Below, piece by piece: positions 2,559 to 39,211 of a stretch of DNA of 64,000 nucleotides. How positions within the stretch are numbered: the stretch's first letter is position 1; each line of letters starts with the position of its first letter. The position numbers and the translations under genes were made by a program. This DNA comes from Tolypothrix carrinoi HA7290-LM1 (GTDB taxonomy: Bacteria; Cyanobacteriota; Cyanobacteriia; Cyanobacteriales; Nostocaceae), in the NCBI GenBank assembly GCA_019358935.1, contig JAHHIK010000029.1:8734-72733 (forward strand), read 5' to 3'. A model generated the notes under the pieces. It was not told where the DNA came from. It did no database searches and worked only from the letters and a program-made list of their open reading frames with translations.

Positions 2559-2714
2559 TGCTGATAAATTTAATTTACAAGCCAAATCATCAAATGAAAT
2601 CGATTTTATTCAATCTAAGACAGATTGAAAGTTTATTTCTGGAAAAGGGTTCTGTGAATCCATCTGTTGCATTTATTTTTCACATGGTATAACTCTGCAA
2701 TTATATTAATTATA

Positions 2715-3485: not shown

Positions 3486-3530
3486 CAGCTTGTTTTCCTG
3501 TTCTTAACTAAAGGTTTCAAATCAAAAATA

Positions 3531-8159: not shown

Positions 8160-8204
8160 AATTTCCCGAATCAGATAAATTAAATTAACTTAGGTTAAGA
8201 TGTT

Positions 8205-12884: not shown

Positions 12885-12928
12885 CTTACTTTATTAAACA
12901 GCAACGTCATAAAATATTTTATTTTAAA

Positions 12929-14671
12929 TTATATCAAAGATGAAATTAATATTTTGGCAGCTATCTGGATTTGCTCATTTAAAACTGTTTTAATATCTTC
13001 TTCTGTTGTTAACGGATTGGCAATGACTGCACGCATAGCAACTATAGGACTTTCGCTGCCAAACTTGATATCTTTTTTTGTCGTTCGCGAAATAAAAGTA
13101 TGACCAATTTGACGCTGATTTTTTTGTAAACATTCATTAAATATATTGATGATTTGATTATCTATCTCTGTCAATTTATTTTGAGCAAACTCCCCTCTAA
13201 ATTGTTTTGGAATATAGCGATAAGTTAACAGATTAGTATCAGGTTCTGCCAGCAATTCAAATTCAGGCATAGCCGAAATACAAGCAGCCATGTATTGAGT
13301 TTTTCGGATTCCTTCATTAATCAAAAACTCATATCCCTTAACTCCAATCAGCTTTAAACCGGCGTGTAAAAATAAAGCCATGCCTGGTCGAGAACCTTCT
13401 AAAGCACGTTTACCTAAATCAAACGACCCCTTACGCATGGTATAGCTAGCCTGTTTTTCGATCGCCCCAGCCAGATGTGGATCGCGGAAAAAAACCATAC
13501 CAATACCCATTGGTAGATATAGTTGTTTATGTCCATCAATAGTGACTGAATCAGCTCTTTCTATACCAGCAAGCTTATGCCGATATTGCTCAGAAAAAAT
13601 CAGTGGACCACCCCAAGCAGCATCTACATGAAAATGAGCATTAGCTTCCTGTGCAATTTCTGCGATATCTGTAAGGGAATCAACTCCACCTGAGTCTGTT
13701 GTACCAGCAACTCCCACAATTGCAATAATCAGCAAGTTTTTGGCACGACAATTTATAACAGTTTGGCGCAGTGCTTGTATATCAACTCGATTATTACAGT
13801 CAGTAGGGATTTTGATCAAACTATGGGTACCAATGCCCATTAAATCCGCAGCTTTATCAAAAGAGAAATGCATCAAGTCAGAACCAATAATTACTGCTCC
13901 TTTATAGCCATAGAAATTTAGAGCAGCTGTTAAACCTTCTTTTTCTACACCAAGAAATCCATCTTTCGGTTTTAGTAAAGCATTTCGCGCGCACCAAACT
14001 GCTGTGATATTTGCCACTGTTCCACCAGAAACCAAGATTCCAAGTGTACTCAAATTGTTTTGAATATGTTGAGTGTAAAAACCATCAGAGAAATTATAAA
14101 TTTGTCGATGCAACATAGCCAAAGCTTCACGTTCACAAAAGCTTAGGGCTTTAGCTGTCTCTATTTTGACGGCGTTTTGGTTCATTGCCGTCATTAGTTT
14201 AGCCAAAGGGCGTACAAAACTAGGAAGTGCCGAGGTCATGTGACCTATAAATCGTGGCGAAGATGTATGTATTGAATGAGCAACAACATTGTTGCCTATG
14301 TATTTGAGATAGTTCTCAAAATTAGTCGGCTGAACAGGAATTTTACTATCAGAAAATTTTTCTAATAGTGACTCTAAATCAATGTTGGTATTAGAATCGA
14401 TTGTGGTTAAAAAATCTTGCGATAAGCTATCAGTTATTTCATCAATTCGTTTCTCAATGGAGGTTGCTTGATTGCATGAAGTAAACAATTGCATTACTTG
14501 TTCTTCTATCTCATTATCTAATGTTTGCTCAGATTCCAAAAAAGAATTTTTGTTTAGCATTTCTTGTTTGCTTGATGTCATATTGTGTTGGTGACCATAT
14601 TTTTTTACTTCATTTTTGCAGGAAGAATGTTTTGCCTGCTTTTTTCTAAAATCTTCGATTCTATAGGTCAT
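12929..14671 (-). CDS. panP: PLP-dependent group II decarboxylase, PanP-like aspartate 1-decarboxylase (beta-alanine supply)
   Basis: HTSSPRFIGHMTSALP, SGGTVAN, HVDAAWGG, DGHKQLY (PLP lysine), LEGSRPG motifs; true start may be 14581. Confidence 0.8.
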   Translation of the reverse strand: MTYRIEDFRKKQAKHSSCKNEVKKYGHQHNMTSSKQEMLNKNSFLESEQTLDNEIEEQVMQLFTSCNQATSIEKRIDEITDSLSQDFLTTIDSNTNIDLESLLEKFSDSKIPVQPTNFENYLKYIGNNVVAHSIHTSSPRFIGHMTSALPSFVRPLAKLMTAMNQNAVKIETAKALSFCEREALAMLHRQIYNFSDGFYTQHIQNNLSTLGILVSGGTVANITAVWCARNALLKPKDGFLGVEKEGLTAALNFYGYKGAVIIGSDLMHFSFDKAADLMGIGTHSLIKIPTDCNNRVDIQALRQTVINCRAKNLLIIAIVGVAGTTDSGGVDSLTDIAEIAQEANAHFHVDAAWGGPLIFSEQYRHKLAGIERADSVTIDGHKQLYLPMGIGMVFFRDPHLAGAIEKQASYTMRKGSFDLGKRALEGSRPGMALFLHAGLKLIGVKGYEFLINEGIRKTQYMAACISAMPEFELLAEPDTNLLTYRYIPKQFRGEFAQNKLTEIDNQIINIFNECLQKNQRQIGHTFISRTTKKDIKFGSESPIVAMRAVIANPLTTEEDIKTVLNEQIQIAAKILISSLI

Positions 14672-14716: not shown

Positions 14717-17700
14717 CTAAAAATCTTGTTGCTTTGTTGCTGTTCGGCGCTCTTTCCTAACTTGTTTTCGCCTCTGTACTGAAGCTGTTCTGCTCTCCGA
14801 GTGATGAGCCGGTCGTAAAACAGATGTTTCTTCACTAGATTCCTGACTAAAATATTTAACCAAGTGACTTATAGTCGGATATTGAAACATCTCAACCAAG
14901 GTGAAATCTCGCTGAAATACTTTTTGCAACTTGCTAGGAACTTGAATTAAGAGCAATGAATTACCACCAAGTTCAAAGAAATTGTCATGGATTCCCACTC
15001 TTTCTACCTGAAGTAATTCTTGCCAAATAGATGCAATCACTTTTTCAACTTCGGTCTTCGGCGCCACATAGGATACCTCTAATTCTGGTCTTGAAGCCTC
15101 TGGTGCAGGTAATGCGTTGCGGTCTATTTTGCCGTTGGGTGTTAGAGGTAGGGCGTTCAGCATTACAAAGGTTGAGGGTACCATGTATTCAGGTAATCTT
15201 TCTTTGATAAACGCTCGTAAGTCGCCGATCGAAAGGGTGGGTTTGTTTGCTATTATTTCGTCAGCCAGTAGGCGCGTTTTTTCTGCGGGTGTGACTTGGG
15301 AATGCAGTGTTCCTTCTTTTTGTTGTGTCGGAACAACATAGGCTACTAGGCGTTTGTCTCCTGGTTGTTCCTCTCGTGCGACAACGACAGCCTCCACTAT
15401 TCCCGGATGTTGACTCAAGATAGTTTCTATCTCACTTAACTCGATCCGATATCCCTGGAATTTCACTTGATGATCTACACGACCCAGAAACTCAATGTTA
15501 CCGTTGGGTAGATAGTGTGCTAAGTCTCCAGTTTTATACAATTTGTTGTTTGGGTTTGTCCCAAAGGGATTGGAGATGAAACGCTCTATGGTTAACTCTG
15601 GTTGGTTTAAGTAGCCACGCACCACGCCTTCGCCGCCAATGTAGAGTTCACCAGGAATACCAACAGGTACTGGTTGTAGATGGCGATCAAGAATGTAAAT
15701 TTCTGTGTTGGCAATGGGGCGTCCGATTGGTATTGTATTGCCGACTTCTTGCAGGGGATAGCTTGTAGACCAAATAGTCGTCTCGGTGGGACCATACATA
15801 TTATAAATTTCTGCTGACAGTTGAGTCCGCAACTGTTCTGCTAGAGAAATGGGTAATGCCTCACCACCAAGCATCAATTTGCGGAGTGAACCCATCGCAC
15901 TCAGCGCCTTATTATCCTGAATTAATATTCTTGCTAGAGACGGAGTGCATTGCAGATGTGTCACATTGTGCCTTGCAATTTGAGCAGGTAGGGAATAGTC
16001 AGTGTCATCTTTGTCTGTTTTTTTGTTGCTCAATTCTCTGACTGTATTCAGGTGATGCAAACTAGACAACACCGATTCCACATCCACACCAAAATCGATC
16101 AGACATGCAACCTCATCCACCCCGATCGCCTTGAGTCGGTTAATCATCCGCAAGCAAGTGCTGGGTGTGCCTAACAAACTGCTCGTTTCAAAGTAGCGAT
16201 TAAAGGCGTAATTCAGCAGTTGCTCTTCTTCTTGTGCGGTAAAGTTCTCTGCATTAATATCGTGACCTAAGCTTTTTCCTAAGTTATTCAACAGACTCAG
16301 AGAACTCTTCAAGTACTGGTAGAAAGGTTGCCGCACCTTTTCTCGCACAACATCAATGTTCTCACCCACAAAGGTGTGAATCATCAGCGTGACGTGACCT
16401 GCTCCCAGTCCATGTCCGTGTTCATGCCAGGATTGGCGATAAATCGCAATTTTTTCCTCTAGTTCCTCTAGATTTTGATCGAGTAAATGGGTAAGCAAGT
16501 TGGCACCAATTTCACCCGCCCGACGAAAAGTTTCCGGACTACCAGCTGCTGTAACCCAAATCGGCACTTCCGGCTGAATCGGTTGGGGATGAATCTTCAC
16601 TTCTACTTCATTGCCGCTACCTGCTGGCAGGGTTATCGATTCTCCGCGCCAAAGTTGGCGGACAGTTTCGATGTCACGAAACATGATTTGGAAGCGATCG
16701 CTATACTTCTCTGGTGCTAAGACAAAATCATTGGCGTGCCAACCGGAAGCAAAGGAGATACCAACCCTGCCTCGGGAAAGGTTATCAACTACAGACCATT
16801 CTTCAACAACTCGGATCGGGTTTTGTAAGGGTAAAACAATACTACCAGCACGAATTTGAATTCGCTCTGTAATTGTGGCGATCGCTGCACTGACAACGGA
16901 GGGATTTGGGTATAGACCGCCAAATGCATGGAAGTGTCGCTCTGGAGTCCAGATTGCCGCAAAGGCGTGTTTGTCGGCAAACTTAGCACCCTCAAGTAGT
17001 AACTGATACTTATCTGTGCCTGCCTCTACCTCGTCACTAGCAAAATAGAAAAGGCTAAATGCCATTTCTTTATCTGTGATTTTTTGGTCTACTTCAGTAG
17101 CAAAAGTAGTAGGTCTTGAATCACCATTAATCACAACTTGAAAACCGCGTGTCAGCGTCCACAGCAACTCTAACACTGAGATATCAAAGGAAATGCTGGT
17201 AACTGCTAGCCAAGTCCCTGGATGATCGTTGCCAATACTACCGTCCATTCCTGTAAAGAAATTGACAACGTTGCGATGACTGACCATCACTCCCTTTGGC
17301 TTACCTGTGGAGCCAGAAGTGTAGATTGTATATGCTAAGTTATCCGGCGAGAAGGCTGTTGGGGGATTCTGGTCACTTGCGCTTTGAATTATCTGCCAAT
17401 CTCTATTTAGGCAAACCAGCGAGGCGCTGGAATTTGGAAGTTTTTCCAGCAATTGTTGTTGAGTCAGCAGTATTGGCACTTGAGCATCTGCCAACATAAA
17501 AGTTAGGCGTTCCTGCGGGTATGCTGGGTCTAGCGGTACATAAGCACCACCAGCTTTGAGGATGGCTAATAGTCCGATGATCATATCGAGCGATCGCTCT
17601 ACACAAATCCCGACTAATACTTCTGATTTTACTCCCAATGAACGCAAGTAATGCGCCAATTGGTTAGCTTTCGTGTTTAGTTCGCAGTAAGTTAACTGCT

Positions 17701-19168
17701 CATCTTTAAACACCACTGCTACTGCATTAGGTGTGCGTTCTACTTGCGCTTCAAATAATTGATGAATGCACTGTTCTTGAGGATACTCAACTTCTGTATC
17801 ATTCCATTCCAGCAGCAATTGATATTTTTCTTGTGCAGTCAGTAACGACAAATCTCGAAGTTGTTGTTCGGGATTAGCAACTATACTTTCTAGCAAAGTC
17901 TTTAAATGCCTTAATATCCGATTAATCGTCGCACTATCAAAACGACGGGTATCATACGCAATCGACAGTAATAAATCTGAACTAGGATATACCTGTAGGG
18001 TAAGAGGATAATTCGTCTTTTCAAATATCCGAGCTTCACCTATTACCATGCTTTGAGCTAGCTTTTCTTTAGTATCATCTACTAAATAGTTATTAAAAAC
18101 TAGAAGACTCTCAAATAGTGGCAAGCCACGAGGAATTTGACTCCATTGTTGAATCTGTATGAGTGGACTATACTCGTACTGACGCATTTCCACTTCTTGA
18201 ATTTGAAGCTTTTTCAACCAAGGTATAAGCAAATCATCAGAAGGGACTTGTACCCGTAGCGGCAATGTGTTGGCGAAAAGTCCCATCATGGACTCTGCTT
18301 CTGCTAATTCAGTCGGTCGGCCTGAAGATGTAGCTCCAAAAACTATATCTAACTCACCACTATAGTGACTTAAAAGTATAGCCCAGGCTCCCTTGAGTAG
18401 AATATTTAGGGTAAGGTGATACTTTCGCGTCAGGGAATTTAAGGCATCTGTCGTTGTTACCGAGAGTAAGGTTTGTTGACAATCATGGTCTTCGTCTTCG
18501 CTAGAGAAACTACCAGCAGCTTTGTCGATCATTAGTGGTGTCGGTACTGTAAATCCTCTAAGCATCTCACGCCAGTAAATTTCAGCCTTTGATATATCTT
18601 GCTGCTGTAGCCAAGAAATATATTCTTTAAAGGGACGAGGGTATTCCAGATGTAAATCCTGACCTTTACAAAAGGCATTATAGAATTCATAAAATTCTTT
18701 CCATAGCCATGTTAAAGACCACCCTTCCATCAATATATGGTGATAGCTGAAGACAAATTGATAAGTGCTATCAGCCACCTGAATTAATGCCAGACGGATG
18801 AGTGGAACCTGGGAAAGTGTAAAGCCTTGTTTGCGATCTGCTGCTAAAAAGACTTCTAACTGCTTTTCTGTTTCCTCCAAAGACATCTGACGCCAGTCTT
18901 GAAAATCCCAAGGCAAATCTACTTGTCGATACACCACTTGATATGGCTTATCAAGATTTTCCCAGTAGAAGGAAGTACGCAAAATCGGATGCCGATCTAA
19001 AACTCGCTGCCATGCTTTCTGGAAAGCTGGAACATCAACTTGAGTTTGCAAGGCGTAGCAAAACTGCTCAAAGTACATCCCCGAATTAGGTGTAACCAGC
19101 GTGTGAAAAAGCATACCCTGCTGTAAGGGTGAAAGTTCGTATATATCTTCAATATTATTTTGGTTCAT
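14717..19168 (-). CDS. NRPS module C(DCL-like)-A(Gly) with embedded luciferase-like monooxygenase-PCP
   Basis: IEDIYELSPLQQGMLFH start; code about DILQMGMIWK; insert FSLFYFA...WTPERHFHAFGGLYPNPSV...EEWSVVDNLSRGR at about 16030-17065; PCP GGNSL. Confidence 0.95.
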   Translation of the reverse strand: MNQNNIEDIYELSPLQQGMLFHTLVTPNSGMYFEQFCYALQTQVDVPAFQKAWQRVLDRHPILRTSFYWENLDKPYQVVYRQVDLPWDFQDWRQMSLEETEKQLEVFLAADRKQGFTLSQVPLIRLALIQVADSTYQFVFSYHHILMEGWSLTWLWKEFYEFYNAFCKGQDLHLEYPRPFKEYISWLQQQDISKAEIYWREMLRGFTVPTPLMIDKAAGSFSSEDEDHDCQQTLLSVTTTDALNSLTRKYHLTLNILLKGAWAILLSHYSGELDIVFGATSSGRPTELAEAESMMGLFANTLPLRVQVPSDDLLIPWLKKLQIQEVEMRQYEYSPLIQIQQWSQIPRGLPLFESLLVFNNYLVDDTKEKLAQSMVIGEARIFEKTNYPLTLQVYPSSDLLLSIAYDTRRFDSATINRILRHLKTLLESIVANPEQQLRDLSLLTAQEKYQLLLEWNDTEVEYPQEQCIHQLFEAQVERTPNAVAVVFKDEQLTYCELNTKANQLAHYLRSLGVKSEVLVGICVERSLDMIIGLLAILKAGGAYVPLDPAYPQERLTFMLADAQVPILLTQQQLLEKLPNSSASLVCLNRDWQIIQSASDQNPPTAFSPDNLAYTIYTSGSTGKPKGVMVSHRNVVNFFTGMDGSIGNDHPGTWLAVTSISFDISVLELLWTLTRGFQVVINGDSRPTTFATEVDQKITDKEMAFSLFYFASDEVEAGTDKYQLLLEGAKFADKHAFAAIWTPERHFHAFGGLYPNPSVVSAAIATITERIQIRAGSIVLPLQNPIRVVEEWSVVDNLSRGRVGISFASGWHANDFVLAPEKYSDRFQIMFRDIETVRQLWRGESITLPAGSGNEVEVKIHPQPIQPEVPIWVTAAGSPETFRRAGEIGANLLTHLLDQNLEELEEKIAIYRQSWHEHGHGLGAGHVTLMIHTFVGENIDVVREKVRQPFYQYLKSSLSLLNNLGKSLGHDINAENFTAQEEEQLLNYAFNRYFETSSLLGTPSTCLRMINRLKAIGVDEVACLIDFGVDVESVLSSLHHLNTVRELSNKKTDKDDTDYSLPAQIARHNVTHLQCTPSLARILIQDNKALSAMGSLRKLMLGGEALPISLAEQLRTQLSAEIYNMYGPTETTIWSTSYPLQEVGNTIPIGRPIANTEIYILDRHLQPVPVGIPGELYIGGEGVVRGYLNQPELTIERFISNPFGTNPNNKLYKTGDLAHYLPNGNIEFLGRVDHQVKFQGYRIELSEIETILSQHPGIVEAVVVAREEQPGDKRLVAYVVPTQQKEGTLHSQVTPAEKTRLLADEIIANKPTLSIGDLRAFIKERLPEYMVPSTFVMLNALPLTPNGKIDRNALPAPEASRPELEVSYVAPKTEVEKVIASIWQELLQVERVGIHDNFFELGGNSLLLIQVPSKLQKVFQRDFTLVEMFQYPTISHLVKYFSQESSEETSVLRPAHHSESRTASVQRRKQVRKERRTATKQQDF

Positions 19169-19185: not shown

Positions 19186-22100
19186 TCACTGACCAATCTG
19201 AGCCAGCAAGTTACTCAAATTTTCTTGATTTATGTTTGCTGCCGAAAAGTCTGAAGGGGTATACTCTGCTACTTCTAGAGAGCGACAGTGGGTGATAAGA
19301 GACTGGAGTGCTTCGACAAAACTATGAGATAGTTTCTCTATAGTTTCGCGTCGATGCACATTTGTGCTATAGCCAAATTCCAGTCTTAACTGACCTTCTT
19401 CATTAACCCATGCAGTCACGCCTAGCAAATGAGGACTAGTTCCTTTTGTACTGTACATTGCTCCAGTAGATTCTTCAGTTGGTCTGAGCATAGATTGATC
19501 AAATCTTCTACCAAACTGACCAAGGTAGAGAAAAAATACCTCTGCTTGAGGAAATGACCGAATTTTCTCTGTAAGTGTTGTATCCTCGCTCAGGTAGCGT
19601 AGTACTCCATGATCAATGGTTCTACTAGAAATGTCACGAAACTGCTCTTTAACGGCTTTCAATGCATCCCCTGGATTCTCAGCCCCCTCTAAATCCAACA
19701 GCACAGGATAAAGAGTAGTCAGCCAACCTACTGTCCGTGATACATTCACATTATCTATAGTGGTATTTGCGTCTCGTGCATCTTCTTCGGTATTAAACAG
19801 TAGCCATTTTATGCCTGTCCATTGTTTAAAAGCTTGTACAAGAGCAGTCAGCAGAACTTCTTGTGTATTAGTTCGATAAACTGCTAGAACCTCCTGAAGT
19901 AATGCCTGAGTTTCTGTTTCGGTTAACGCTACTGAGACACTTTGATCTGATGTTACGGTGTTAATGCCTCCAGAATAATCGATTGGTAAGTGATAAACCT
20001 GTTTGTAACGTTCGTTTAGGCAGGAATTTAGCCTTTTCTGCATCTTTTCAGAGTGAGCGTATTCCTTTAGTCGTTCAGACCACTGCTTGAAAGAGGTTGT
20101 TTTCTCCGGCAGTTGAATGGCTTTACCTTGGTTAAGCTGTTGATAAGCAGTCTCAAGATCCTCTAGTAAGATTCGCCAAGAGCCGAAATCTACTGCCAAG
20201 TGGTGGATGATAATGAGCAAGCGGCTTGACTTGTTGACACCCAGATTAAAAAGCACACCCCGTACAATTGGCCCCTCTGACAGGTTCAAGCTAGCTTGTA
20301 GTTCCGTGGCGGTTGCTTCCATAGAACATTTTTGAACTTCAGGTGAAAACGCTGATAAATCTGTATATATCAAATTCACCTGATTTTCCAAGCCAGTATT
20401 TACCTGCTGCCAGCCAGATTCAGAGGGGATAAACCGAAGGCGAAGTGCATCGTGATGTATGAATAAATGCAGCCATGCCTGTTCAAACAAAGCTGGATCG
20501 AGAACTTGCATTACCTCTACAAAGAATGCCATGTTCCAGTGGTGTGGTTCTGATAAATTCTGTTCAAAGAACCAGTGCTGGATAGGTGTAAGAGCAAGCG
20601 AACCAGTTACTAAACCTTGCTCAGCCTGGACAACTTGCTTTGTACTTGTCACCTCTGCCAGTTCGGCAATTGTCTGATGTTCAAACAATTGCTGAGGGGC
20701 AAGTCGATAACCTGCTTTAGCAGCTCTGGCACTAACTTGAATGCCAAGGACGGAATCTCCCCCTAACTCAAAAAAGTTATCGTGAATCCCTACTTGCTCA
20801 ATACCAAGGAGCTCTTGCCAAATATTGGCAATGGTTTGCTCTACCTCACTTGTAGGAGCAATATAGGCATTATCTAAATTAGGTCTTAAATAAAGTGAAG
20901 CGGAACTGGCTTTTTGTGCAAGTTGAGAACCTTGACTAAATTCAAGTTTAATCCATCTTTTGATACTAGTTTGTAAATCTACCGTTGATGTTACTACTTG
21001 GGTAAATTTATTTAGAGATAAAGCACGTTTAAAAACCTCCAGTCCTTCTTGCCTTGTCATCATCGAATCCGCACCTTTGGGTAAGGTTACTGATTCGGAG
21101 GATTTTTGAGTAATCCAATCACCATAATTGATACTCTGCCAGGGAACAAGGCTTGTTTGGTTATGTTTATGTACAAAAGCATCAGTGAATAGGTGCGCTG
21201 CTGGATAAGCAGCCATCCCCATTACCCCCAAAATAGATGCTAATGAGGATATTACTACACAAAAATCAAGCTCTTTTCCTTGTAGGATATTTTCTAAGAC
21301 AAATAATCCATAGCCTGTTGAGCTTAATTGACTTTCACACTCAGTTTTACTTATCTGTTGAACAGTGCTAAACAACTTTATCCCTGCTGCATGGATTACA
21401 CCATGAACGTGACCAAAGCGGTTTGATGCTTGAGTCATTACTGCTTGCATTTGTTCGAGATTAGCAACATCGGCGCGGCAAATTAGAACTTCAGCACCCA
21501 AGGCTTCTAATGCTTGCACTTTCTGGATTTTGCGACTGATATCATCGTTCTCATCATGAGTTGCCAACCATTGAGACCAATCTTGTTTTAAGGGAAAACT
21601 GGAACGCCGTGTAAGAATTAGCTTGGCACGCGCTGTTTGGGCTAGATATTCTGCCAGTACCAAGCCAACATCTCCTAGACCACCAGCAATTAAGTATACT
21701 CCCCCTTCCTTGATGGGAATTGCTTCCTCATCTGGCTCCTGAAGTTGTATTGGTTCAAAAGTTTGCACCCATCGGTGCTTTCCACGGTAGGCAACCATGT
21801 TCTCTGATGCCTTGTGGGTGAGTTCTGCTAAGAGTTGATCTATCAGTTGATTTTCTTGGGGTGTCCCTGATTCAGGAATGACTACATCAATATTACGACA
21901 GGTGATATTGGGATACTCTTGGGGAATCACCTTACAGATTCCCATGACAGTCGCCTTTTCCGGGCATAACTTTTCGTCGCCGTTTACTTCTTGTACATTG
22001 TTGGTAACAACTAGAATTTGAATAGTATCGGTAACTTCTTGTCTTCCCAACGCTTGTGCTAGGAAAAGTAGACTATAAAAACCATTATTTTGACATTCCT

Positions 22101-25100
22101 CAAAGAACTGATGAGGTAATTCTCCCTCTACGTTGGGGATGAGACTCCAAAAATGGCTGATGGCATTAGGGTTTAAATCCAATGAATCAAGTTCTTTCAG
22201 CAAAGCATCATAGTCACTACTTGTTTGTGGATTTATTGCGTAAGAGCGATCGCCCAGTTGGCTAAACTGCTTTCCAACAGTCACAGTAATGACATCATGC
22301 CCCTGTAATTCCAACTGTTTGCCAATTTCTGAACCAATTTTAAGAGTATCAATAAACACTAAATAACATAACTTTTGTGCTGGTTTTGCTGCTATATGCC
22401 CAGAGCGTTTCCAGGAGGGGATATAAAACCAGTCAGCAATATCCGGTTTTTTCTGTAATGCTTGCGGCGATCGCGTTGCCAAATTAGCTTCAGGGTTGGC
22501 ATCAATCCAGTAACGCTGACGTTCAAAAGGATACGTCGGTAAGGGGATGCGACCGCGTTGTTCATTGGCATAAAAACCAGACCAATGTACTTCTACCCCT
22601 TCCAGCCAAAGGCGACCCAATGTAGTCATTAAAAATGCAACATCTGACTGTTGCTCGTAGGAATGCCTCAGGGAGGGGAGCATCACCGATTTAGCTCTAT
22701 CGTCACTTTCTAGACATTGTGATGCGAAACTAATTAATGCTTGACCTGGACCAACCTCTAATAAAATCGGATTGTCTTTTTGCCACAACTGTTGCACTCC
22801 CGAAGCAAAGCGTACTGCTTGACAGAGGTGCTTAACCCAATAACTGGGATCTGTTGCTTGCTCTACTGTAATCCAGGTTCCGGTGACGTTAGAAACATAG
22901 GGAATTTTCGGGGGTTTAAGGCTAAATGTTTTGACTAAATCGCCAAAGGCTGGTGCGATCGCCTCCATCATCACAGAATGAAAAGCATGAGAAGTCTGCA
23001 AACGCTTACCGACTAAATTTTGCTCGCTTAATTGTTGTTCCCATTCTTCCACAGCATCTGTGGCACCTGCAATCACACACAACGATGAACCGTTGATTGC
23101 AGACATGGAGATTTTCTCATTCAAGAGGGGCTGTATCTCTTCCTCTGAAAGCGGAACTGCCAGCATTGCCCCTTCAGGCAACTCTTGAATCATTTGCGCT
23201 CTTTTAGCTACCAGGGTTAAAGCATCTTCCAGAGACAAAACCTCGGCTAGAGTTGCTGCTACATATTCACCGATGCTGTAGCCAATCATCGCCGCAGGAC
23301 GAATTCCCCACGATATCCACAACTGAGCTAAAGCATATTCAATGACAAATATAGCAGGTTGCGAGAGAAAGGTTTGATTCAGTAGAGACGTTGCACGCAA
23401 AGTTTCTACATCCGCTTGTTCCTCCCCACGACCTAACATTTTTCGCAAATCTAGCCCAGGTGAGAGAGTATTTTGTTTTTGCTTGCTGCCATTCTCACTG
23501 TTTCTATTCGGATACAAAACATCTCGCAAATCCAGACCAAGTTCGGGTTTGAGGAGTTCGCAGCATTGGTCAACTGAGGCGCGAAATGTTGGCTCAGTTT
23601 GGTAAAGCTCAAGAGCCATATCAATGTAGTGAGTTCCCAGTCCAGAGAACATGAAGGCAACAGGGCGTTGCTTAGTTTTCTGAGTACTGGTGATAACTCG
23701 CTTTGGTTCTTGAAGTGCCTTGACAGCATCTTGGATATCTCGGCAGACAACCGTGCGCCGATAGTCGAAAGCTCTTCGCCCAACCTGCAATGTGTAAGCC
23801 GCATCGGCAAGGTTTAAATCGGGATGTTCTCGGAAATAATTAGCTAAATTTGTTGTAGCCGTTTCCAGCGCTGAACTGGTTTTAGCGGATAGCATCAACA
23901 ACTGCCAAGGGCGAGAATGTAGAGACGCAGTTGCGGTCTCTACAACCGGGGCTTCTTCGAGAACTACATGGGCATTGGTTCCCCCTAATCCAAAGGAACT
24001 AACTCCCGCACGTCGGGGAGTGCCATTACTTTGCCACTCGGCAAGTTTGGTATTGACGTAGAAAGGACTGTTGGCAAAGTCAATTTCGGGATTAGGCGAA
24101 GAATAGTGTAAGCTCGGAGGTATTTGTTTGTGCTTGAGGGCTAAGACGGTTTTGATTAATCCCGCCACACCAGCTGCTGTGTCCAAATGTCCAATGTTGG
24201 TTTTGACGGAACCAATGGCGCAGAAGCCTTTCTTTTGGGTACTTGCCCCAAAAGCTTGTGTCAGGGCGGCAATTTCAATGGGATCTCCTAAAGCTGTTCC
24301 TGTTCCGTGAGTCTCAATGTAAGTAATACTCTCAGGCTCTACCTCAGCTACTAATTGGGCTGTTCTAATTGCCTTTGCTTGAGTGTCGATGCGGGGTGCG
24401 GTATAGCTGACCTTGAATGAACCATCATTATTGATAGCTGAACCTTTGATTACAGCATGAATGCGATCGCGATGCAAGAGAGCATCTTCTAATCGCTTTA
24501 ACACTACAATGCCTACACCCTCGCCCCCCACAGAACCCTGTGCATTAGCATCAAATGCACGGCAGTGTCCGTCAGGAGACACTATTCCTCCTTCTGTATA
24601 CAAATATCCAGATTTTCTTTCCGCACTTATGGCAACGCCACCAGCTAAAGCGATATCACATTCACCATTCAGCAAGCTTTGGCAAGCTAAGTGAACAGCA
24701 ACTAATGAAGTTGAGCAGGCAGTTTGCACAGCATAACTTGGACCTTCTAGGTTCAGTTTATAAGAGACACGGGTGGTTAAAAAGTCTTTATTAGCGGCTA
24801 TTGTCAGTTGCTGAGGATCAATAGAATTTACAACATTTTGATTTAGGTAAACATTTAGTAAGTAGCTGCTTAAACTAGATCCACCATAAACACCAATAGC
24901 ACCTTTATAATTGTGTGAATCATATCCAGTACTTTCCAGAGCTGACCAAGCACACTCTAGAAAAATCCGATGTTGCGGATCAGTGATTTCTGCTTCTCTG
25001 GGATTAAAGCCAAAGAATGAAGCATCAAATAATTCTGCGTCTTCTAATATACCATGTGCTTTTACATAGTTAGGGTCATTTAATATGGATAAACTTATAC

Positions 25101-25266
25101 CTGATGATAATAATTCTTCATCACTGAAAAAAGATATTGATTCTACTCCATTTTGAAGATTTTTCCAGAATTCATCAATATTTTTTGCTCCAGCAAATCG
25201 CCCTGTTAAGCCTATAATTGCTATTTCTGAACCATTTAGAGAATTTGATGCTGTGGTAATACTCAT
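19186..25266 (-). CDS. PKS module KS-AT(GYS-type)-KR-ACP fused to a C-terminal epimerization-like domain
   Basis: KS TACSTS; AT GYSIG; KR IAGGLGDVG; carrier GGDSV; then LTPIQHWF, HHLAVD, SRTVGWLTTLYPV, YLGQF, YTPSDF. Confidence 0.94.
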   Translation of the reverse strand: MSITTASNSLNGSEIAIIGLTGRFAGAKNIDEFWKNLQNGVESISFFSDEELLSSGISLSILNDPNYVKAHGILEDAELFDASFFGFNPREAEITDPQHRIFLECAWSALESTGYDSHNYKGAIGVYGGSSLSSYLLNVYLNQNVVNSIDPQQLTIAANKDFLTTRVSYKLNLEGPSYAVQTACSTSLVAVHLACQSLLNGECDIALAGGVAISAERKSGYLYTEGGIVSPDGHCRAFDANAQGSVGGEGVGIVVLKRLEDALLHRDRIHAVIKGSAINNDGSFKVSYTAPRIDTQAKAIRTAQLVAEVEPESITYIETHGTGTALGDPIEIAALTQAFGASTQKKGFCAIGSVKTNIGHLDTAAGVAGLIKTVLALKHKQIPPSLHYSSPNPEIDFANSPFYVNTKLAEWQSNGTPRRAGVSSFGLGGTNAHVVLEEAPVVETATASLHSRPWQLLMLSAKTSSALETATTNLANYFREHPDLNLADAAYTLQVGRRAFDYRRTVVCRDIQDAVKALQEPKRVITSTQKTKQRPVAFMFSGLGTHYIDMALELYQTEPTFRASVDQCCELLKPELGLDLRDVLYPNRNSENGSKQKQNTLSPGLDLRKMLGRGEEQADVETLRATSLLNQTFLSQPAIFVIEYALAQLWISWGIRPAAMIGYSIGEYVAATLAEVLSLEDALTLVAKRAQMIQELPEGAMLAVPLSEEEIQPLLNEKISMSAINGSSLCVIAGATDAVEEWEQQLSEQNLVGKRLQTSHAFHSVMMEAIAPAFGDLVKTFSLKPPKIPYVSNVTGTWITVEQATDPSYWVKHLCQAVRFASGVQQLWQKDNPILLEVGPGQALISFASQCLESDDRAKSVMLPSLRHSYEQQSDVAFLMTTLGRLWLEGVEVHWSGFYANEQRGRIPLPTYPFERQRYWIDANPEANLATRSPQALQKKPDIADWFYIPSWKRSGHIAAKPAQKLCYLVFIDTLKIGSEIGKQLELQGHDVITVTVGKQFSQLGDRSYAINPQTSSDYDALLKELDSLDLNPNAISHFWSLIPNVEGELPHQFFEECQNNGFYSLLFLAQALGRQEVTDTIQILVVTNNVQEVNGDEKLCPEKATVMGICKVIPQEYPNITCRNIDVVIPESGTPQENQLIDQLLAELTHKASENMVAYRGKHRWVQTFEPIQLQEPDEEAIPIKEGGVYLIAGGLGDVGLVLAEYLAQTARAKLILTRRSSFPLKQDWSQWLATHDENDDISRKIQKVQALEALGAEVLICRADVANLEQMQAVMTQASNRFGHVHGVIHAAGIKLFSTVQQISKTECESQLSSTGYGLFVLENILQGKELDFCVVISSLASILGVMGMAAYPAAHLFTDAFVHKHNQTSLVPWQSINYGDWITQKSSESVTLPKGADSMMTRQEGLEVFKRALSLNKFTQVVTSTVDLQTSIKRWIKLEFSQGSQLAQKASSASLYLRPNLDNAYIAPTSEVEQTIANIWQELLGIEQVGIHDNFFELGGDSVLGIQVSARAAKAGYRLAPQQLFEHQTIAELAEVTSTKQVVQAEQGLVTGSLALTPIQHWFFEQNLSEPHHWNMAFFVEVMQVLDPALFEQAWLHLFIHHDALRLRFIPSESGWQQVNTGLENQVNLIYTDLSAFSPEVQKCSMEATATELQASLNLSEGPIVRGVLFNLGVNKSSRLLIIIHHLAVDFGSWRILLEDLETAYQQLNQGKAIQLPEKTTSFKQWSERLKEYAHSEKMQKRLNSCLNERYKQVYHLPIDYSGGINTVTSDQSVSVALTETETQALLQEVLAVYRTNTQEVLLTALVQAFKQWTGIKWLLFNTEEDARDANTTIDNVNVSRTVGWLTTLYPVLLDLEGAENPGDALKAVKEQFRDISSRTIDHGVLRYLSEDTTLTEKIRSFPQAEVFFLYLGQFGRRFDQSMLRPTEESTGAMYSTKGTSPHLLGVTAWVNEEGQLRLEFGYSTNVHRRETIEKLSHSFVEALQSLITHCRSLEVAEYTPSDFSAANINQENLSNLLAQIGQ
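23382..23409. repeat. Short palindromic Nostoc-type dispersed repeat within the AT coding region
   Basis: gtagagacgttgcacgcaaagtttctac (GTAGAGAC...TCTAC arms); encodes VETLRATSL where the paralogous AT has VGTQK. Confidence 0.6.
23918..23944. repeat. Short palindromic Nostoc-type dispersed repeat in the KS-AT linker
   Basis: tgtagagacgcagttgcggtctctaca inverted repeat; encodes VETATASL, differing from paralogous linkers. Confidence 0.65.
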
Positions 25267-25385: not shown

Positions 25386-28300
25386 TTAATTATAAGTATT
25401 TTCAATAGATTTAATTTTTTGCAGACGTTTTCTTTGTTGAGCTTTTCCATCTGCAATTTTCTCCCTCACATTAACCATAATATCAGAAGATGGCTGTTTA
25501 TTTTTTAAGTGATTAAGATAATTTGCTAAGGAGTTTATAGTCGGATATCTAAATAGATCGAGGACAGATAAATCCTTCTTCAATATTTCACGTAATTTAC
25601 CATGAACTTGAACCAAGAATAATGAATGACCACCAAGTTCAAAAAAGTTATCATGAATTCCTACCTCTTCAACTTGAAGTAATTTCTGCCAAATATCAGC
25701 AATAGTTTTTTCTACCTCAGTTTGGGGTGGCTGATAAACTACTTCCAATTCTGGACGTACTGTATCAGGTGCAGGTAGTGCCTTACGGTCAACCTTACCA
25801 TTGGGTGTTAGTGGTAGTGCCTCTAATGTGACAAAAGCTGCTGGCATCATGTAGTTCGGCAACTTTGACTCTAAAAAACTACGTAGTTCAGAAATTGTTA
25901 GTGTTTGCTCTTTTTGAGGAACTACATAAGCAACTATTCGTTGAGAGTCTGCTGAACCTTCGCTGACTATAACTACAGTTTCTCGCACTACTGGGTATTG
26001 GCTGATTACTGCCTCTATTTCTCCCAGTTCAATCCGGAAACCACGTATCTTGACTTGGTGGTCAATCCGACCTAAATATTCAATGTCTCCATTCGGCAGA
26101 TAGCGGGCTAAATCACCAGATTTATAAAGGCGTGCGCTTGGTTTGTCACTAAAGGGATTAGAAATAAATCTTTGGGCTGTTAGTTCTGGTCGGTTTAAAT
26201 AACCCCGTACCACACCAGCACCACCAATATACATTTCACCTGGTACTGCAATAGGTACTGGCTGCCCATAGCTATCTAGTAAGTAAACTTGCAAGTCAGG
26301 AATTGGACGACCAATAACACTTGCTGGTGCTACTTCTAAGTCTGCTATTTTTAGCGGACGATATGTGACATGCACGGTCGTTTCCGTAATACCGTACATA
26401 TTGACTAACTGTGGTGACTCGTCGCCATGACGCTCAAACCAAGGTCTTAAACTCTCAAGTTGCAACGCTTCTCCACCAAAAATTACTTTTCGCAGGCTTA
26501 AGTTGTTACTATTTCCCAGCGATTTCTCTACCTGCATCAGTTGACGGAAAGCGGAAGGTGTCTGGTTAAGTATCGTTACTTGCTGTGTTAATAGTAATTT
26601 ATAAAAGTCTTCAGGTGAACGACTCAGCCAGTACGGTACTACTATCAATCGTCCACCATAAAGTAAGGCACCCCAGATTTCCCAAACGGAAAAATCAAAG
26701 GCTATAGAATGGAATAGTGTCCATACATCCTGTTGGTTAAAGTTATACCAGAATTCAGTTGTTGCCAACAGACGAACTACATTGCTGTGATTGACTAAGA
26801 CACCCTTGGGTTGACCTGTTGAGCCAGAGGTGTAGATAATATAAGCTAGGTTATCAGTTGTACATTCACTAATTGGATTTTGTAAGCTTTGTTGAGCTAT
26901 ACTTTCCCAATTCGTGTCTAGACAAACAACGCTAATCTGATTTTTCGGTAAATTCTCTATCAGGTGCTGCTGTGTTAGTAATACTGACACCTGAGCATCT
27001 TGCAATATGAAAGCTAAACGTTCTGGTGGATACGCCGGGTCTAAGGGTACATATGCACCACCTGCTTTGAGGATGGCTAATAGTCCGATGACCATTAAGA
27101 GCGATCGCTCTACACAAATCCCTACCAATACCTCTGGTTTTACACCCAGCGAGCGCAAATAATGCGCCAATTGGTTAGCTTTTGCGTTCAGTTCCCCATA
27201 GGTTAGCTGTTTATCTTCAAATACTACTGCTACTGCATCAGGCGTTTTTTCTACCTGCGCTTCAAACAACTGATGGATACATAGCTGTTGAGAATATTCA
27301 ACTTCTGTATTATTCCACTCCCGCAGCAATTGATGCTGCTCAGATTTCGTCAACAGTGGTAACTCCGACAAACGCTGCTGTGGATTAGCAACAATTCCTT
27401 CAAGCAACGTTTGCAAATGACCCGCCATTCTTTGTATAGAACTTTCCTCAAATAAATCAGTATTGTATTCTAAACTTCCAACTAGCCCCTCCTCTATTTC
27501 TGTCATAGATAGGGTTAAATCAAACTGGGCAGTACCACTATCGCTTTCCAAGGGAGTTAAAGTCAAACCAGGCAACTCTAAAACAGATATTGGTGCATTC
27601 TGAAGCACAAACATCACTTGAAATAGTGGTGTATGACTTAAGTCCCGCTGTGGTTGCAGTTGCTCAACTAACAACTCAAAGGGCAAATCTTGATATGCAT
27701 AAGCCCCTAGTGCTACTTCACGCACTCGTTTTAGTAGCTCTTCAAAGCTGGGATTTCCTGCCAAGTTAGTTCTCAATACCAGGGTATTGACAAAAAGTCC
27801 AATTAATCCTTCTATTTCCGCCCGGTTGCGGTTAGCGATCGGCGAACCGACCACAATATCTTCGCTACCCGTATAACGCCCTAGCAGTGTTTGGAAACCT
27901 GCTAACAGGGTCATAAATAAAGTACTTCCCTGCTGCTGGCTTAATTTATTTAGGGCTGCGGATAATTCCGGAGATAACTTAAATGAGTAGGTCGCACCTC
28001 GGAAAGTCTGAATCGTCGGTCTTGGGTGGTCTGTGGGTAACTCTAATACTTTTGGTGCGTTCTCTAAATGCTTAAGCCAATAAGATTTCTGAGTTTTGAG
28101 TACTTCTCCTTGTAACCATTGTCGTTGCCAAGCAGCGAAGTCTACATATTGTATTGGCAGTGCAGGCAACGATGAAGGTTGCTCATTACAGAAGGCTTGA
28201 TAAAGTTTTGCCAACTCTTGCACTAGTACCCCGATTGACCAACCGTCAGAGACGATATGGTGCATTGTCAGTAGTATTATGTGTTCTTGTTCACCAAGAC

Positions 28301-31300
28301 GTAATAGTTTTACTCTCAGTAGATGGTCGCTGCTGATGTCAAAGGGTTGTTGTGCATCTTGTGCAGCCTGTTGTTTAATTTCGGCTTCTTGTTGATTTGT
28401 AGGTAGTTCGCTAATATCGAATATTGACAACGTTAGGGGCTTTTCTTTCGAGATGACAGCTACTGCTTGCCCTTCTCTTGTTTGAAAATTGGTTCTCAAC
28501 GCTTCATGGCGGCTGATAATTTCGTTAAAACTTTGTTGTAATGCTTCTACATTCAATTGTCCTTGTAGGCGAACAGCAGCAGGAATATTGTAGAATGGGC
28601 TGTCTGGTTCTAATTGAGCTAGGAACCATAATCGTTGTTGAGCAAATGATAGGGGTAATTCTGGCGATCGCGCAATCCGCTCAATATTCGTCGCTTCAAC
28701 TCCTGAATCTACCTTAATCGCTTTTTCAATTTCTTTTGCTAGCCCTGCTATTGTTGGTTTTTCAAATAAATAACGTAAAGGAAGCTCTACTTGAAATACT
28801 TGCCGTATTTGGGACATTACGCGAGTGGCGATTAAGGAATGTCCTCCCAATTCAAAGAAATTATTATCAATACCTACTTTATCTATACCGAGTACTTCTG
28901 CCCAAACACCCGCTAATAAATTCTCAATTGGTGTGGAAGGAGGGGTAATATTTGATGATGATACTTGTGTTAATTCGGGTGCAGGCAGCGCTTTGCGATC
29001 AAGCTTACCATTAGGCGTGAGCGGTAGTGCCTCCAATGTGACAAAAGCTGCTGGCACCATGTAGTTTGGCAACTTTGATTCTAAAAAGCTACGTAGTTCA
29101 GTGATTACCAGTGTTTGCTCTTTTTGAGCAACTACATAAGCGATTATTCGTTGAGAATTTGCTGAATCTTCGCTGATTATAACTACAGTTTCTCGCACTG
29201 CTGGGTATTGGCTGATGAGTGTTTCGATTTCTCCCAGTTCAATCCGGAAACCACGGAGTTTCACTTGGTTATCAATCCGACCAATGTATTCTATCTCTCC
29301 ATTCGGCAAATAACCGGCTAAATCTCCTGTTTTGTACAGACGTGCTGATTTATTACTAAAGGGATTGGGTATAAATTTTTCTGCTGTCAAATCAGGACGA
29401 TGGAAATAGCCTCTTGCAAGTCCTTCCCCGCCGATACACAATTCGCCTGCTACACCCACAGGAACTAACTGGTTATATTGGTCGAGGATATAAAGCTGCG
29501 TGTTTGCAATTGGGGAACTAATTGGTACGGTGTTGTTAACAGTTTGTACCAGCCTAGCGGCTGACCAAATGGTGGTTTCGGTGGGACCGTACATATTCCA
29601 TAAAGAATCGCATCGGTCGAGTAACTGATTTGCTAGGTGTCTGGGTAAAGCTTCGCCACCACAGAGAATTTTTAATTGATGATCTCCATCCCAACCTGCT
29701 GCCAAAAGTAGCTGCCATGTCGCTGGTGTGGCTTGCATGACCGTAGCTTTGGAGTCAGTTAGTTTTGCTGACAACTGTGTTCCGTCTGAGACAATTTCCC
29801 GGCTGGCGACTACCAAGCGAGCACCTACTATGATTGGCAGGAACAGTTCTAATGCCGCAATATCAAAGGAATAAGTAGTGACTGCTAGCAAGGTGTCTTC
29901 CTCAGTTAACCTTGGGGCTTGTCTCATGGAGTACAAAAAGTTGCTCAGAGCAATGTGGGGAATTTGCACGCCTTTTGGTTTGCCTGTGGAACCAGAGGTA
30001 TAGATGACATAAGCTAGGTTGTCAGCGGTTAGCTCAGAGAATAAATTTTCCTGGCTTTGTTGAGCTATCAGATGCCAATCAGTATTTAAACAAACTACTT
30101 TAGCTTTGTGTTGCGGCATTGCCTCCAAAAGCGACGCTTGAGTTAGCAACACTGGCGCTTGTGAATCTTCTAGTATATAAGCTATGCGTTCTTGAGGATA
30201 GCTAGGGTCTAACGGTACATATGCACCACCTGCTTTGAGGATGGCTAATAACCCGATGACCATTAAGAGCGATCGCTCTACACAAATCCCTACCAATACC
30301 TCTGATTTTACACCCAGCGAGCGCAAGTAGTGTGCCAATTGGTTGGCTCTGGCATTTAGTTCCCAATAGGTTAGCTGTTCATCTTCAAATACTACGGCTA
30401 CTGCATCAGGCGTTCTTTCTACCTGCGTTTCAAATAATTCATGGATACATTTATCTTGCGGATACTCAACCTGAGTCTGATTCCACTCCACAAGTAACTG
30501 ATGTCGCTCATGTTCTGTCAAGAGCGACAACTCACCAAGACGTTGCTGCTGATTGGTAGCCATGCCCTCTAGCAAAGTCTGCAAATGTCCTAGCATCCGT
30601 TTGATAGTGTCAGTATCGAAGCGATCGCTATCATCGCAACTAATCTTGAGCAACAACTCGTCACCTGGAATCACGATTAGGGTTATAGGATAGTTAGTCT
30701 TTTCAAAGCCATGAAAATCCTCTATCTCCAAATTTATATCCCTCTGCCGTACAGAAGCATCTATAGTATAGTTCTCAAAAACTACTATACTCTCAAACAG
30801 AGATAAATCTTTAGGAACTTCGCTCCATCCTTGGACTTTCACTAACGGACAATACTCGTATTGACGTGCCTCAACTAGTTGATCTTTGATTTTCTCAAGC
30901 CAAGGCAAAAGAAATTCTTCGGGTGATACTTGTACTCTAATCGGCAGTGTGTTGATAAACAGCCCTACCATAGACTCGGCTTTAGCTAAAGTAGAAGGAC
31001 GACCAGAAGTTACTGCCCCAAAAACTACGTCCTCCTGACCACTGTAGCAACTTAATAGCAAAGCCCAAGCTCCCTGTACTAGGGTATTTAGCGTTAACTG
31101 GTGTTGCTTTGCTACAGATTGCAATGCTGCTGTTGTTACTACAGAAAGCTTTACTTCTCCCTCGTCATAGTCATCCGTTTGAGTCAGTAATTTTCTAGCT
31201 CCTTGATTCACCGATAGCTGTGTCGGAGTGGTAAAACCTTTAAGCATCTGTCGCCAGAAAGTCTCAGCTTCAGATAGGTTTTGTTGCTGTAGCCAGACAA

Positions 31301-36606: not shown

Positions 36607-36648
36607 AATATTAGTCTTATAATTTATCAATATTTTATTAATAAACAA

Positions 36649-37719
36649 TTAATCAATTACTTGAAAATTTACATACGAAGGTATAGGTTGAATTCGAGTT
36701 AAATCATTTTCAAAAACAACTGAATTTCCATTATTTTCAATTTCTTTAAAGCCAGCAAATTTATAAGATATATACATCATTCTATTGCGATTGTTTGGTA
36801 CAAACTCTGCCAAAAGGCGAACATTATTGCTTTGAGACAAATTCATAACATGATTCATCATAATTGTCCCGACTCCCCTCGACATAACGCGACAAGACAT
36901 TAGTAAAAGCTTGATTGTCCATGATTTAGACTGGCATTCAATCAGAACTAAACCTATTTTTCCATAGCTTCCATACTTATCTTCCAGATTTGCAATCAGC
37001 AGTTTATGATTTTCTGATTGACGAAAATGATTGAGTTCGTCATAGGAGTACGTATAACCAGTTGTGTTCAATTGGTTGGTTCGTAACGTTAATTCTTCTG
37101 CACGCTGCAAATCTTCTTCTTTTGCAGAGGATATTGTGAAATTCATGTTGAGAGTAGCTAAGAATTCATCTGTTGTGCCTACAAATTCTTTCTCTACATT
37201 TTGACGCTCTATATCATTAATATACATCAATCTTCTAATTCGTGAATCTTCCGTAACAAAACGGGGATTCATGACTGCCATATCTAAAATATCTCCTATA
37301 TCATCTGCGTTGATACAGAGAATTTCTGGCAGGGTAAATTTTACTTCTTCTAGTTCAAATAATTGATCATCAACAAAAGCGATCGCATCCAGACCAATAT
37401 TCAGTAACTTAGCAATTTCTTTCAGAGAAGTAGCTTTAGAGTTCCAATTTATTTGTGGATATAAAAAATATTCTGTTAAACCAAATTCATCTAGTTTGGC
37501 TATTGCTGTAGCACGTTCGTTCTTACTAGCTATAGATTGTAGGATACCACGATTATCTAAAGTATGAATAAGATTTACTATATTTTCTCGCCGATAAACT
37601 TTCTCATCTTCCAGCAAAACTCCGTGCCATAGGGTATTATCTAGATCCCAAACGACACATTTAATAACTTTTTTGTCTTTTTGTTTGCTATTTATGTCTT
37701 GCTCTTTAGTACTAATCAT
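36649..37719 (-). CDS. fkbH: FkbH-like glyceryl-ACP transferase/phosphatase (HAD-IIIC; ZmaN-like)
   Basis: KCVVWDLDNTLW, SIASKN, FVDD, RTNQLN, LLMSCRV. Confidence 0.95.
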   Translation of the reverse strand: MISTKEQDINSKQKDKKVIKCVVWDLDNTLWHGVLLEDEKVYRRENIVNLIHTLDNRGILQSIASKNERATAIAKLDEFGLTEYFLYPQINWNSKATSLKEIAKLLNIGLDAIAFVDDQLFELEEVKFTLPEILCINADDIGDILDMAVMNPRFVTEDSRIRRLMYINDIERQNVEKEFVGTTDEFLATLNMNFTISSAKEEDLQRAEELTLRTNQLNTTGYTYSYDELNHFRQSENHKLLIANLEDKYGSYGKIGLVLIECQSKSWTIKLLLMSCRVMSRGVGTIMMNHVMNLSQSNNVRLLAEFVPNNRNRMMYISYKFAGFKEIENNGNSVVFENDLTRIQPIPSYVNFQVID

Positions 37720-37722
37720 ATC

Positions 37723-38907: not shown

Positions 38908-38944
38908 AATACCATTTATGCCACGTAAAATGGCAATTTATATT

Positions 38945-39196: not shown

Positions 39197-39211
39197 TAGT
39201 CTTGATTATTC

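Follow-up and report, generated by a model that had tools for sequence, protein, structure and literature searches.

A 64,000-nucleotide stretch of contig JAHHIK010000029.1 from the cyanobacterium Tolypothrix carrinoi HA7290-LM1, referred to throughout as the window, encodes a polyketide synthase (PKS) that ends in an epimerization (E) domain of the nonribosomal peptide synthetase (NRPS) type. We call this protein PKS-E. Its E domain is a conserved and probably catalytic variant dedicated to PKS modules that extend an amino acid. It is not an ordinary NRPS E domain, though it most likely works like one, because it sits behind a ketosynthase-acyltransferase-ketoreductase-carrier (KS-AT-KR-T) module instead of the usual adenylation-carrier (A-T) module and because the canonical HHxxxDG, EGHGRE, and FNYLG motifs have given way to DFG, EEDARD, and FLYLG. 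The protein and its parts lie as follows.

19186 to 25266, minus strand: PKS-E open reading frame (ORF) of 2026 residues, with KS, AT, KR, and PP-binding domains and a condensation (C)-family domain at residues 1555-2011
23947 to 25227, minus strand: KS domain with intact Cys-His-His motifs
22615 to 23655, minus strand: AT domain with GLG, GYSIG, and HAFH motifs, a probable AT for hydroxymalonyl on an acyl carrier protein (ACP)
21115 to 21702, minus strand: KR domain that retains the NADPH motif, Ser, and Tyr but has Thr in place of the catalytic Lys and His in place of the Asn
20647 to 20838, minus strand: carrier domain (GGDS) of the peptidyl carrier protein (PCP)-before-E type
19189 to 20619, minus strand: E-type domain, residues 1550-2026 of the PKS, including a C-terminal COM-type tail (about 19189 to 19266)
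20200 to 20202, minus strand: His1689, the second His of HHxxxD, equivalent to the catalytic H743 of TycA
19786 to 19788, minus strand: Glu1827, equivalent to the catalytic Glu of EGHGRE, E882 of TycA

In both sequence and fold, the C-family domain of PKS-E is of the E type and not of the C type. The ten best sequence matches in the PDB, at 4e-92 to 1e-70, are all to NRPS E domains or E-containing constructs, with a drop to 2e-10 at the eleventh; its TIGR01720 score of 116 bits passes the cut-off of 74; and it shares 47% identity with the ordinary E domain encoded two genes upstream in the window. An AlphaFold2 model built from an 84-row alignment (predicted local distance difference test score, pLDDT, of 89; a single-sequence model at pLDDT 37 was discarded) matches the E structures of PvdL, TycA, TycB, GrsA, and BacC with query template modeling (TM) scores of 0.82 to 0.90, compared with ≈0.7 for C domains. 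The COM-type tail (TPSDF, then a helix) aligns with that of the ordinary E domain. Because the carrier is nearer to the window's PCP-before-E (53% identity) than to its PKS ACPs (44%), carrier, E domain, and COM tail probably arrived as a single block. A preliminary description of this DNA had placed an E-like domain with a COM-type tail behind KS-AT-KR-ACP and a DCL-like C domain after it, and the ORF architecture, PDB matches, fold, and C-domain tree all bear this out.

The domain resembles the NRPS E domains TycA-E, GrsA-E, TycB3-E, PvdL-E2, and BacC-E in its fold, the His of HHxxxD, the catalytic Glu, the Arg, the Trp of RTVGW, the E-type carrier, the COM tail, and the DCL-type C domain downstream; it differs in following KS-AT-KR, in facing a thioester unit that is not an α-amino acid, and in replacing the G, V, H, and N of three motifs. 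Its own motifs read HHLAVDFGSW, NTEEDARD, SRTVGW, and FFLYLGQ, so that the catalytic His and Glu are kept and the motifs remodeled just as the preliminary description stated. According to the portions of PMC8905534 drawn on here, mutation of H743 or E882 in TycA reduces product by 99% or more.

Many PKS-fused relatives were collected by a region search across 5.8 billion proteins and by scanning species genomes. In a FastTree phylogeny of 147 E domains, 66 PKS-fused rows, including the window's, form a single branch with support of 0.992, and the same branch has support of 0.986 when 51 rows are added; a quick IQ-TREE tree gives support of 98 for 39 of 40 PKS rows. These trees are midpoint-rooted and carry no one-clade test, and the order of events read from them is tentative. 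The 66 rows are distinct sequences but kin, some of them near-copies; the nearest named relatives, at 83-89%, are Nostoc, Scytonema, and Tolypothrix records. A profile search of 1.84 billion representatives added nothing, its top 150 being dominated by multimodule NRPSs.

Across this clade, at a median identity of 57%, both catalytic residues are retained without exception: no row lacks the second His (66 of 66) or the acid (66 of 66; 61 Glu and 5 Asp). Among ordinary NRPS E domains, 55 of 56 have the pair. A second cyanobacterial PKS-E clade (clade II, 61% identity) keeps both in only 6 of 21 rows, and among 51 PKS-E proteins from other bacteria that bear a dehydratase (DH) domain, which fall outside the window's clade, both persist in 5 and the His in 6. 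The ratio of nonsynonymous to synonymous substitution across the E domain is 0.19 to 0.27 in all six pairs tested (6 of 12 close relatives). Because His and acid are kept throughout while the other PKS-E fusions sampled are mostly degenerate, the window's clade, unlike them, probably does chemistry. Like it, interface domains and clade II have a C-family fold positioned either next to an oxygenase or in between the proteins of an assembly line; the loss of the second His that marks interface and noncatalytic C-family domains (PMC13638107, as far as the text at hand goes) is seen in none of its rows.

A purely structural role would require no such retention. The carrier-E-COM unit, captured whole, would then dock the PKS carrier on the next NRPS protein and perform no chemistry, which we regard as improbable. 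Its appeal is that His or acid is lost in most other PKS-E fusions (15 of 21 and 46 of 51), so such proteins do persist without catalysis; that the carrier is of the PCP-before-E type; that the E domain is kept regardless of extender, upstream residue, and KR state; and that Pro stands in for the Gly of HHxxxDG in 10 of the 66 rows. Yet His and acid vary freely in the degenerate clades at like or lower divergence, from which it follows that the fold needs neither, and their invariance here points to selection on catalysis.

The remodeling of the motifs is nearly as uniform as the retention. The Gly of HHxxxDG, the His of EGHGRE, and the Asn of FNYLG each survive in 0 of 66 rows and the Val after the Gly in 1 of 66. 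The spelling EED(A/P/G)R is confined to a 13-row branch around the window's PKS-E, and the DxG and FLYLG changes are also found behind malonyl-type ATs.

The ATs ahead of the 66 E domains comprise 39 of the malonyl-type GHS form, 25 of the GYS form, and 2 unscored, and GHS rows branch outside GYS rows in the E-domain tree. In the sections of PMC4207774 used here, GYS is the motif of zwittermicin's two ATs for ACP-bound extenders, and HAFH with a basic KRL stretch is malonyl-CoA-like. Instead of a GAAH lid and a hydrophobic MxW-type carrier-binding patch, the AT of PKS-E has HAFH and KRL. GLG goes with GYS in 34 ATs of the fetched loci and GQG with GHS in 69, with no mixed case among those scored. 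FkbH is present in 11 of 11 genomes holding 12 GYS loci (10 of these loci share a contig with it) vs 4 of 27 genomes holding GHS loci, and these four have a separate GYS AT beside or near the cassette. FkbH, an ACP, and two dehydrogenases are encoded in the window's cluster. It is this AT motif and the co-occurrence with FkbH, and these alone, that make hydroxymalonyl the likely extender of PKS-E, an assignment of the preliminary description that very probably stands. The further suggestion that the E domain independently supports the assignment does not hold, because 39 of the 66 rows lie behind GHS ATs. The phylogeny and co-occurrence check proposed there thus came out divided: FkbH tracks the GYS loci, but the clade spans both AT types.

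The extender may be methylated to methoxymalonyl; a methyltransferase (MT) domain and a separate MT gene both lie within the cluster. An aminomalonyl extender, which would restore an amino-acid substrate, was rejected: the extender cassette has a single ACP and a single acyl-ACP dehydrogenase, the window's ORFs include no stand-alone A-domain gene, and no seryl-ACP ligase gene was found in the cluster. A ZmaJ query returned three matches on other contigs, at 41-44%. ZmaA-AT, the top PDB match of the PKS-E AT, was dropped as evidence, the window's malonyl-type ATs being nearer to it (44-45% vs 38%). The zwittermicin A system, as given in the available text of PMC4207774, resembles the window's in its GYSxG AT and in an FkbH cassette that includes a single ACP, a single dehydrogenase, and a single acyl-ACP dehydrogenase (three cassette proteins are 46-52% identical), whereas ZmaA ends in an LCL-like C domain, has GAAH and MCM where HAFH and KRL are found here, and has an AT 38% identical to that of PKS-E. 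Hydroxymalonyl use does not depend on an E domain either: none follows in the zwittermicin PKS with a GYSFG AT, whose last domain is an LCL-like C, or in the second GYS module of the window. The idea that ZmaA carries a PKS-fused E domain was discarded, the plasmid match being an LCL-like C domain.

In the KR, GGxGxxG, Ser, and Tyr are intact; the Lys position is occupied by Thr (by Asn in many relatives) and the Asn position by His (AYPAAH). Lys and Asn are missing from most clade members, the KR is canonical in several (L014, L061, P0073, and P0076), and it is absent from three (P0097, P0103, and P0105). Judged by these residues, the window's form may be a new KR subtype or a nonreducing KR.

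The gene after PKS-E starts 17 bases downstream; it encodes a C domain of the DCL clade whose motif is the variant HHILMEG. C domains that follow PKS-E proteins belong to the DCL clade in 42 of 42 cases, a count in which two rows come from outside the clade and some loci appear more than once; those that follow PKSs without an E domain belong to the LCL clade in 13 of 13.

A second possible source of a C2 oxygen emerged from the gene neighborhoods. A gene for a 288-residue TauD-family protein lies directly upstream of 18 of 26 GHS loci in the first scoring, with 2 more added later, and within 10 kb of 0 of 12 GYS loci. Scoring two candidates per genome in 389 genomes of the window's family, we found that 30 of the 31 best TauD matches lie 3.4-3.8 kb upstream of the KR of a PKS-E module; by our own count, 30 of 41 PKS-E modules in the 50-56% identity band have the gene. 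A more distant TauD homolog (44-48%) lies 27-29 kb away in four genomes that hold close relatives of the window's module. The protein (L034:4548-5411 and homologs) is a candidate carrier-bound α-hydroxylase; PDB, NCBIfam, and Atlas look-ups of it gave the general family only. A 292-residue methyltransferase-like gene often lies 3′ of the PKS. The distribution of FkbH and TauD suggests two routes, hydroxymalonyl or TauD, to a single C2-hydroxylated unit. Among named strains, Chlorogloeopsis fritschii PCC 6912 (L048) carries the TauD type and Scytonema sp. NIES-4073 (L011) the GYS type.

Our favored reading, held tentatively and at less than an even chance, is that the domain is a C2 epimerase of an α-hydroxy-γ-aminoacyl thioester. 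It joins the observed architecture, fold, conservation, and co-occurrence to a presumed extender, dioxygenase reaction, catalysis, and carbon of attack. The upstream module would pass peptidyl-Thr to PKS-E, whose KS would extend it with hydroxymalonyl to a 2-hydroxy-3-oxo-4-acylamino thioester, or to a 2,3-dihydroxy product if the atypical KR still reduces. Glu1827 and His1689 would take off and return the C2 proton, leaving C2 equilibrated, and the downstream DCL-type C domain would carry the D-like epimer onward to Gly. In malonyl-type relatives, the C2 hydroxyl would come from the adjacent TauD-type dioxygenase. The C2-epimerase reading fits most gene neighborhoods and the normal geometry of E domains, which act at the carbon adjoining the thioester (PMC8905534, in the portions used). 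It is also favored by the invariant His and acid, the substitution ratios, the fixed motif changes, and the DCL-type C domain that comes next. More broadly, there is a nearly even chance, still somewhat short of it, that this clade forms a catalytic subtype new to the C-domain superfamily, acting on carrier-bound 2-hydroxy-3-oxo or 2,3-dihydroxy γ-aminoacyl thioesters, either as a hydroxyl-center epimerase or as an enediol isomerase that makes α-keto amides, with the C2 hydroxyl supplied by hydroxymalonyl-ACP or a dedicated TauD protein, in a large cyanobacterial family of iron-linked lipopeptides.

Several observations weigh against C2 epimerization. Fifteen fetched GHS loci (one of them GNS) have no adjacent TauD gene, 11 having been fetched for that absence. 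Most of the 15 have another oxygenase (JmjC, PhyH, or luciferase-type) or an FkbH cassette in the cluster, but such genes, being common there, carry little weight. For two loci, L019 and L049, the queries used detected neither TauD nor FkbH anywhere in the genome, and within ~20 kb no other candidate oxygenase was seen except a fused SyrP-type domain; in a third, L013, nothing beyond SyrP-type genes was found nearby. GHS sister lineages of the GYS rows keep His and Glu even without an adjacent TauD gene, one TauD copy (L037) has a stop ahead of its last His, and TauD relatives also adjoin PKS modules without an E domain (L077 and L080). The co-occurrences amount to two or three branches and not to independent events. 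The G and H-to-N motif changes are present in degenerate clade II as well, and for that reason they would mark PKS context and not by themselves point to a new substrate. Finally, the coupling to a DCL-type C domain may be mere inheritance of a carrier-E-COM-C block.

Some of these exceptions would be absorbed if the E domain instead inverted C4, the former α-carbon of the upstream residue, at the β-keto stage, where its proton is acidic, giving a D-configured statine-type unit. Such γ-epimerization needs no C2 oxygen and so covers malonyl-type members without TauD. With the KR lacking Lys and Asn or missing, the β-keto intermediate may persist, and in 0 of 44 scored loci does the upstream NRPS module have an E domain of its own, a number for which there is no control figure on upstream E frequency at NRPS-to-PKS junctions. 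Inversion at the γ-center has also been proposed, on no direct test, for the E domain of MxgC, which is followed by a DCL-type C domain (PMC13638107, in the part seen). We nevertheless consider it unlikely. Four of the 44 loci (L034, L063, L103, and L106) have a Gly code in the upstream A domain, which leaves no C4 center, and they keep His and Glu; C4 lies two carbons past the normal site of E domains; and the His is missing from most of the DH-bearing PKS-E proteins that have the MxgC layout. The α-hydroxyacyl epimerase put forward in the preliminary description is still the single most likely reading, but it now has this published rival for a PKS-fused E domain (PMC13638107, same sections).

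MxgC, from the myxoglucamide pathway, was compared by description and not by sequence. As presented in the consulted sections of PMC13638107, it resembles PKS-E in having an E domain in an amino-acid-extending PKS protein, a DCL-type C domain after it, and an α-oxidized γ-amino acid as product; it differs in having a DH domain, in using malonyl, and in relying on a separate flavin enzyme for α-oxidation. The window's PKS-E is not a DH-containing malonyl module of this type, having a GYS AT and no annotated DH, which is also absent from the annotations of close relatives. A PKS-E followed by a DCL-type C domain is already in print with MxgC and its proposed γ-center inversion (PMC13638107). Within the literature searched (full text, with thin coverage of subscription journals), we found no description of the window's cyanobacterial clade, its product, or an α-hydroxyacyl epimerase of this type. 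Kasumigamide and paenilamicin were rejected as precedents, the parts of their descriptions consulted listing no E domain in the PKS module of either.

Deprotonation at C2 could also lead elsewhere. An enediol (ketol) shift would convert the 2-hydroxy-3-oxo unit to a 3-hydroxy-2-oxo unit, or β-elimination would remove water from the 2,3-diol, either way giving an α-keto amide, and units without a C2 oxygen would become vinylogous; among the explanations weighed here, we find this one the hardest to credit, and a small remainder of probability goes to none of them. A His/acid pair flanking C2 suits established enediol chemistry, and the atypical or absent KR and the missing DH annotation are compatible with it. 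One PKS-E pathway with a known product does yield α-keto and α-hydroxy γ-amino acids, although a flavin enzyme is credited there (PMC13638107, in the portion available). On the other side, the clade has no known product, dehydration fails for members without a KR, and the E-domain model matches the dehydrating C domain AmbE CmodAA at a TM score of 0.71, no better than ordinary C domains.

The cluster around PKS-E contains the following neighbors, of which the last serves as an internal control.

14717 to 19168, minus strand: downstream NRPS with a DCL-type C domain (HHILMEG), a Gly-code A domain with an inserted MupA/Atu3671-type monooxygenase, and a carrier
25386 to 31856, minus strand: upstream NRPS C-A(Gly code)-T-C-A(Thr code)-T without an E domain, which supplies the residue that the PKS extends
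36649 to 40066, minus strand: extender cassette of FkbH (36649-37719), acyl-ACP dehydrogenase (37723-38907), ACP (38945-39196), and 3-hydroxyacyl dehydrogenase (39212-40066)
40137 to 45995, minus strand: second GYS-type PKS (KS-AT-MT-KR-ACP), which has no E domain and precedes an LCL-type C domain

The assembly line runs from FAAL-carrier-C-A-MT-T through a glycosyltransferase, an AspH-type hydroxylase, the GYS-type PKS, the FkbH cassette, C-A-T-E, and C-A-T-C-A-T to PKS-E; C-A(monooxygenase)-T, a PanP-type decarboxylase, two malonyl-type PKSs, a methyltransferase, and a final NRPS follow, the last with a thioesterase-like end that runs off the window. The window's two GYS ATs are 73% identical to each other. 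We take the A-domain codes to specify Thr before PKS-E and Gly after it. Upstream A-domain codes are, by our presumed readings, Ser or Thr in 13 of 13 scored GYS loci, whereas GHS loci have Ser, Gly (4), Asn, Asp, Lys/Orn, or Ala. On the other side of the cluster are genes for a TonB-dependent receptor and a periplasmic binding protein and a Fur-family gene; given this neighborhood, the product of the cluster is probably an iron-linked, iron-scavenging lipopeptide. A promoter scan of 54800 to 56000 gave 1 site vs 4.4 expected by chance. In eight other loci (L001, L002, L003, L005, L006, L008, L009, and L113), the gene for a TonB-dependent receptor is embedded in the assembly line, immediately 5′ of PKS-E.

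Other details of the cluster stand apart from the E domain. In the downstream NRPS (14717-19168), the C domain has E for D in HHxxxDG, and the A domain with the MupA/Atu3671 insert is followed by PKS genes and not by a thioesterase; the insert occurs in 5 of the 12 closest loci, all with code DILQMGMIW, and is absent from the other 7. The Thr-code A domains of the ORFs at 31858-36648 and 25386-31856 are nearly identical in sequence, which suggests recent duplication or gene conversion. An AspH-family hydroxylase (46060-46908, minus strand) lies beside the glycosyltransferase; no A domain of the cluster has an Asp code, and the substrate of the enzyme may be the fatty acyl portion or else the first residue (code DVEDLGCI). 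The terminal block (window 1-14671, minus strand, and G000:C29:5802-11291) consists of a PanP-type aspartate decarboxylase, two PKSs, a methyltransferase, and C-A-T-thioesterase-like (code VDWIISLA), then P450-like and SDR-like genes, and it recurs behind different front halves (L145 and L148). That code resembles what we take to be a β-alanine code, matching the decarboxylase. The last PKS (window 3531-8159, minus strand) lacks a TACS match, its KR motifs are degenerate, and its AT shares 91% identity with that of the PKS before it; it is probably a nonelongating module.

PKS-fused E domains also occur in other lineages. Clade II (L086, L102, and L119-L138; 21 rows) has a mostly degenerate E domain followed by a free-standing DCL-type C domain, and its usual neighbors are a JmjC gene, a class III aminotransferase, and C-A-T with code DIWEMxAD. 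The 51 DH-bearing proteins (P0254-P0344) are KS-AT-DH-KR-carrier-E from bacteria that include Blastocatellia, Chloroflexi, and Herpetosiphonaceae; in 9 of them, a MupA-type monooxygenase is fused behind the degenerate E domain. Three further PKS proteins (P0022, P0088, and P0104) have two or three degenerate E-like domains in tandem at their end.

With one clade intact and several degenerate, an E call in a PKS protein is no default sign of epimerization, and this holds for MxgC too. If the domain is catalytic, E-domain chemistry would extend past amino acids, and carrier-E-COM would be a portable unit for hydroxyl stereochemistry at PKS-to-NRPS junctions. PKS-E also bears on which hydroxymalonyl epimer is loaded and where the C2 center is set, questions raised in the sections of PMC4207774 and PMC5331325 used here. 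Of the 389 genomes examined in the window's family, 99 have KR-carrier-E-like matches (all clades together), often next to genes for TonB-dependent receptors, and for this reason culturable producers should exist.

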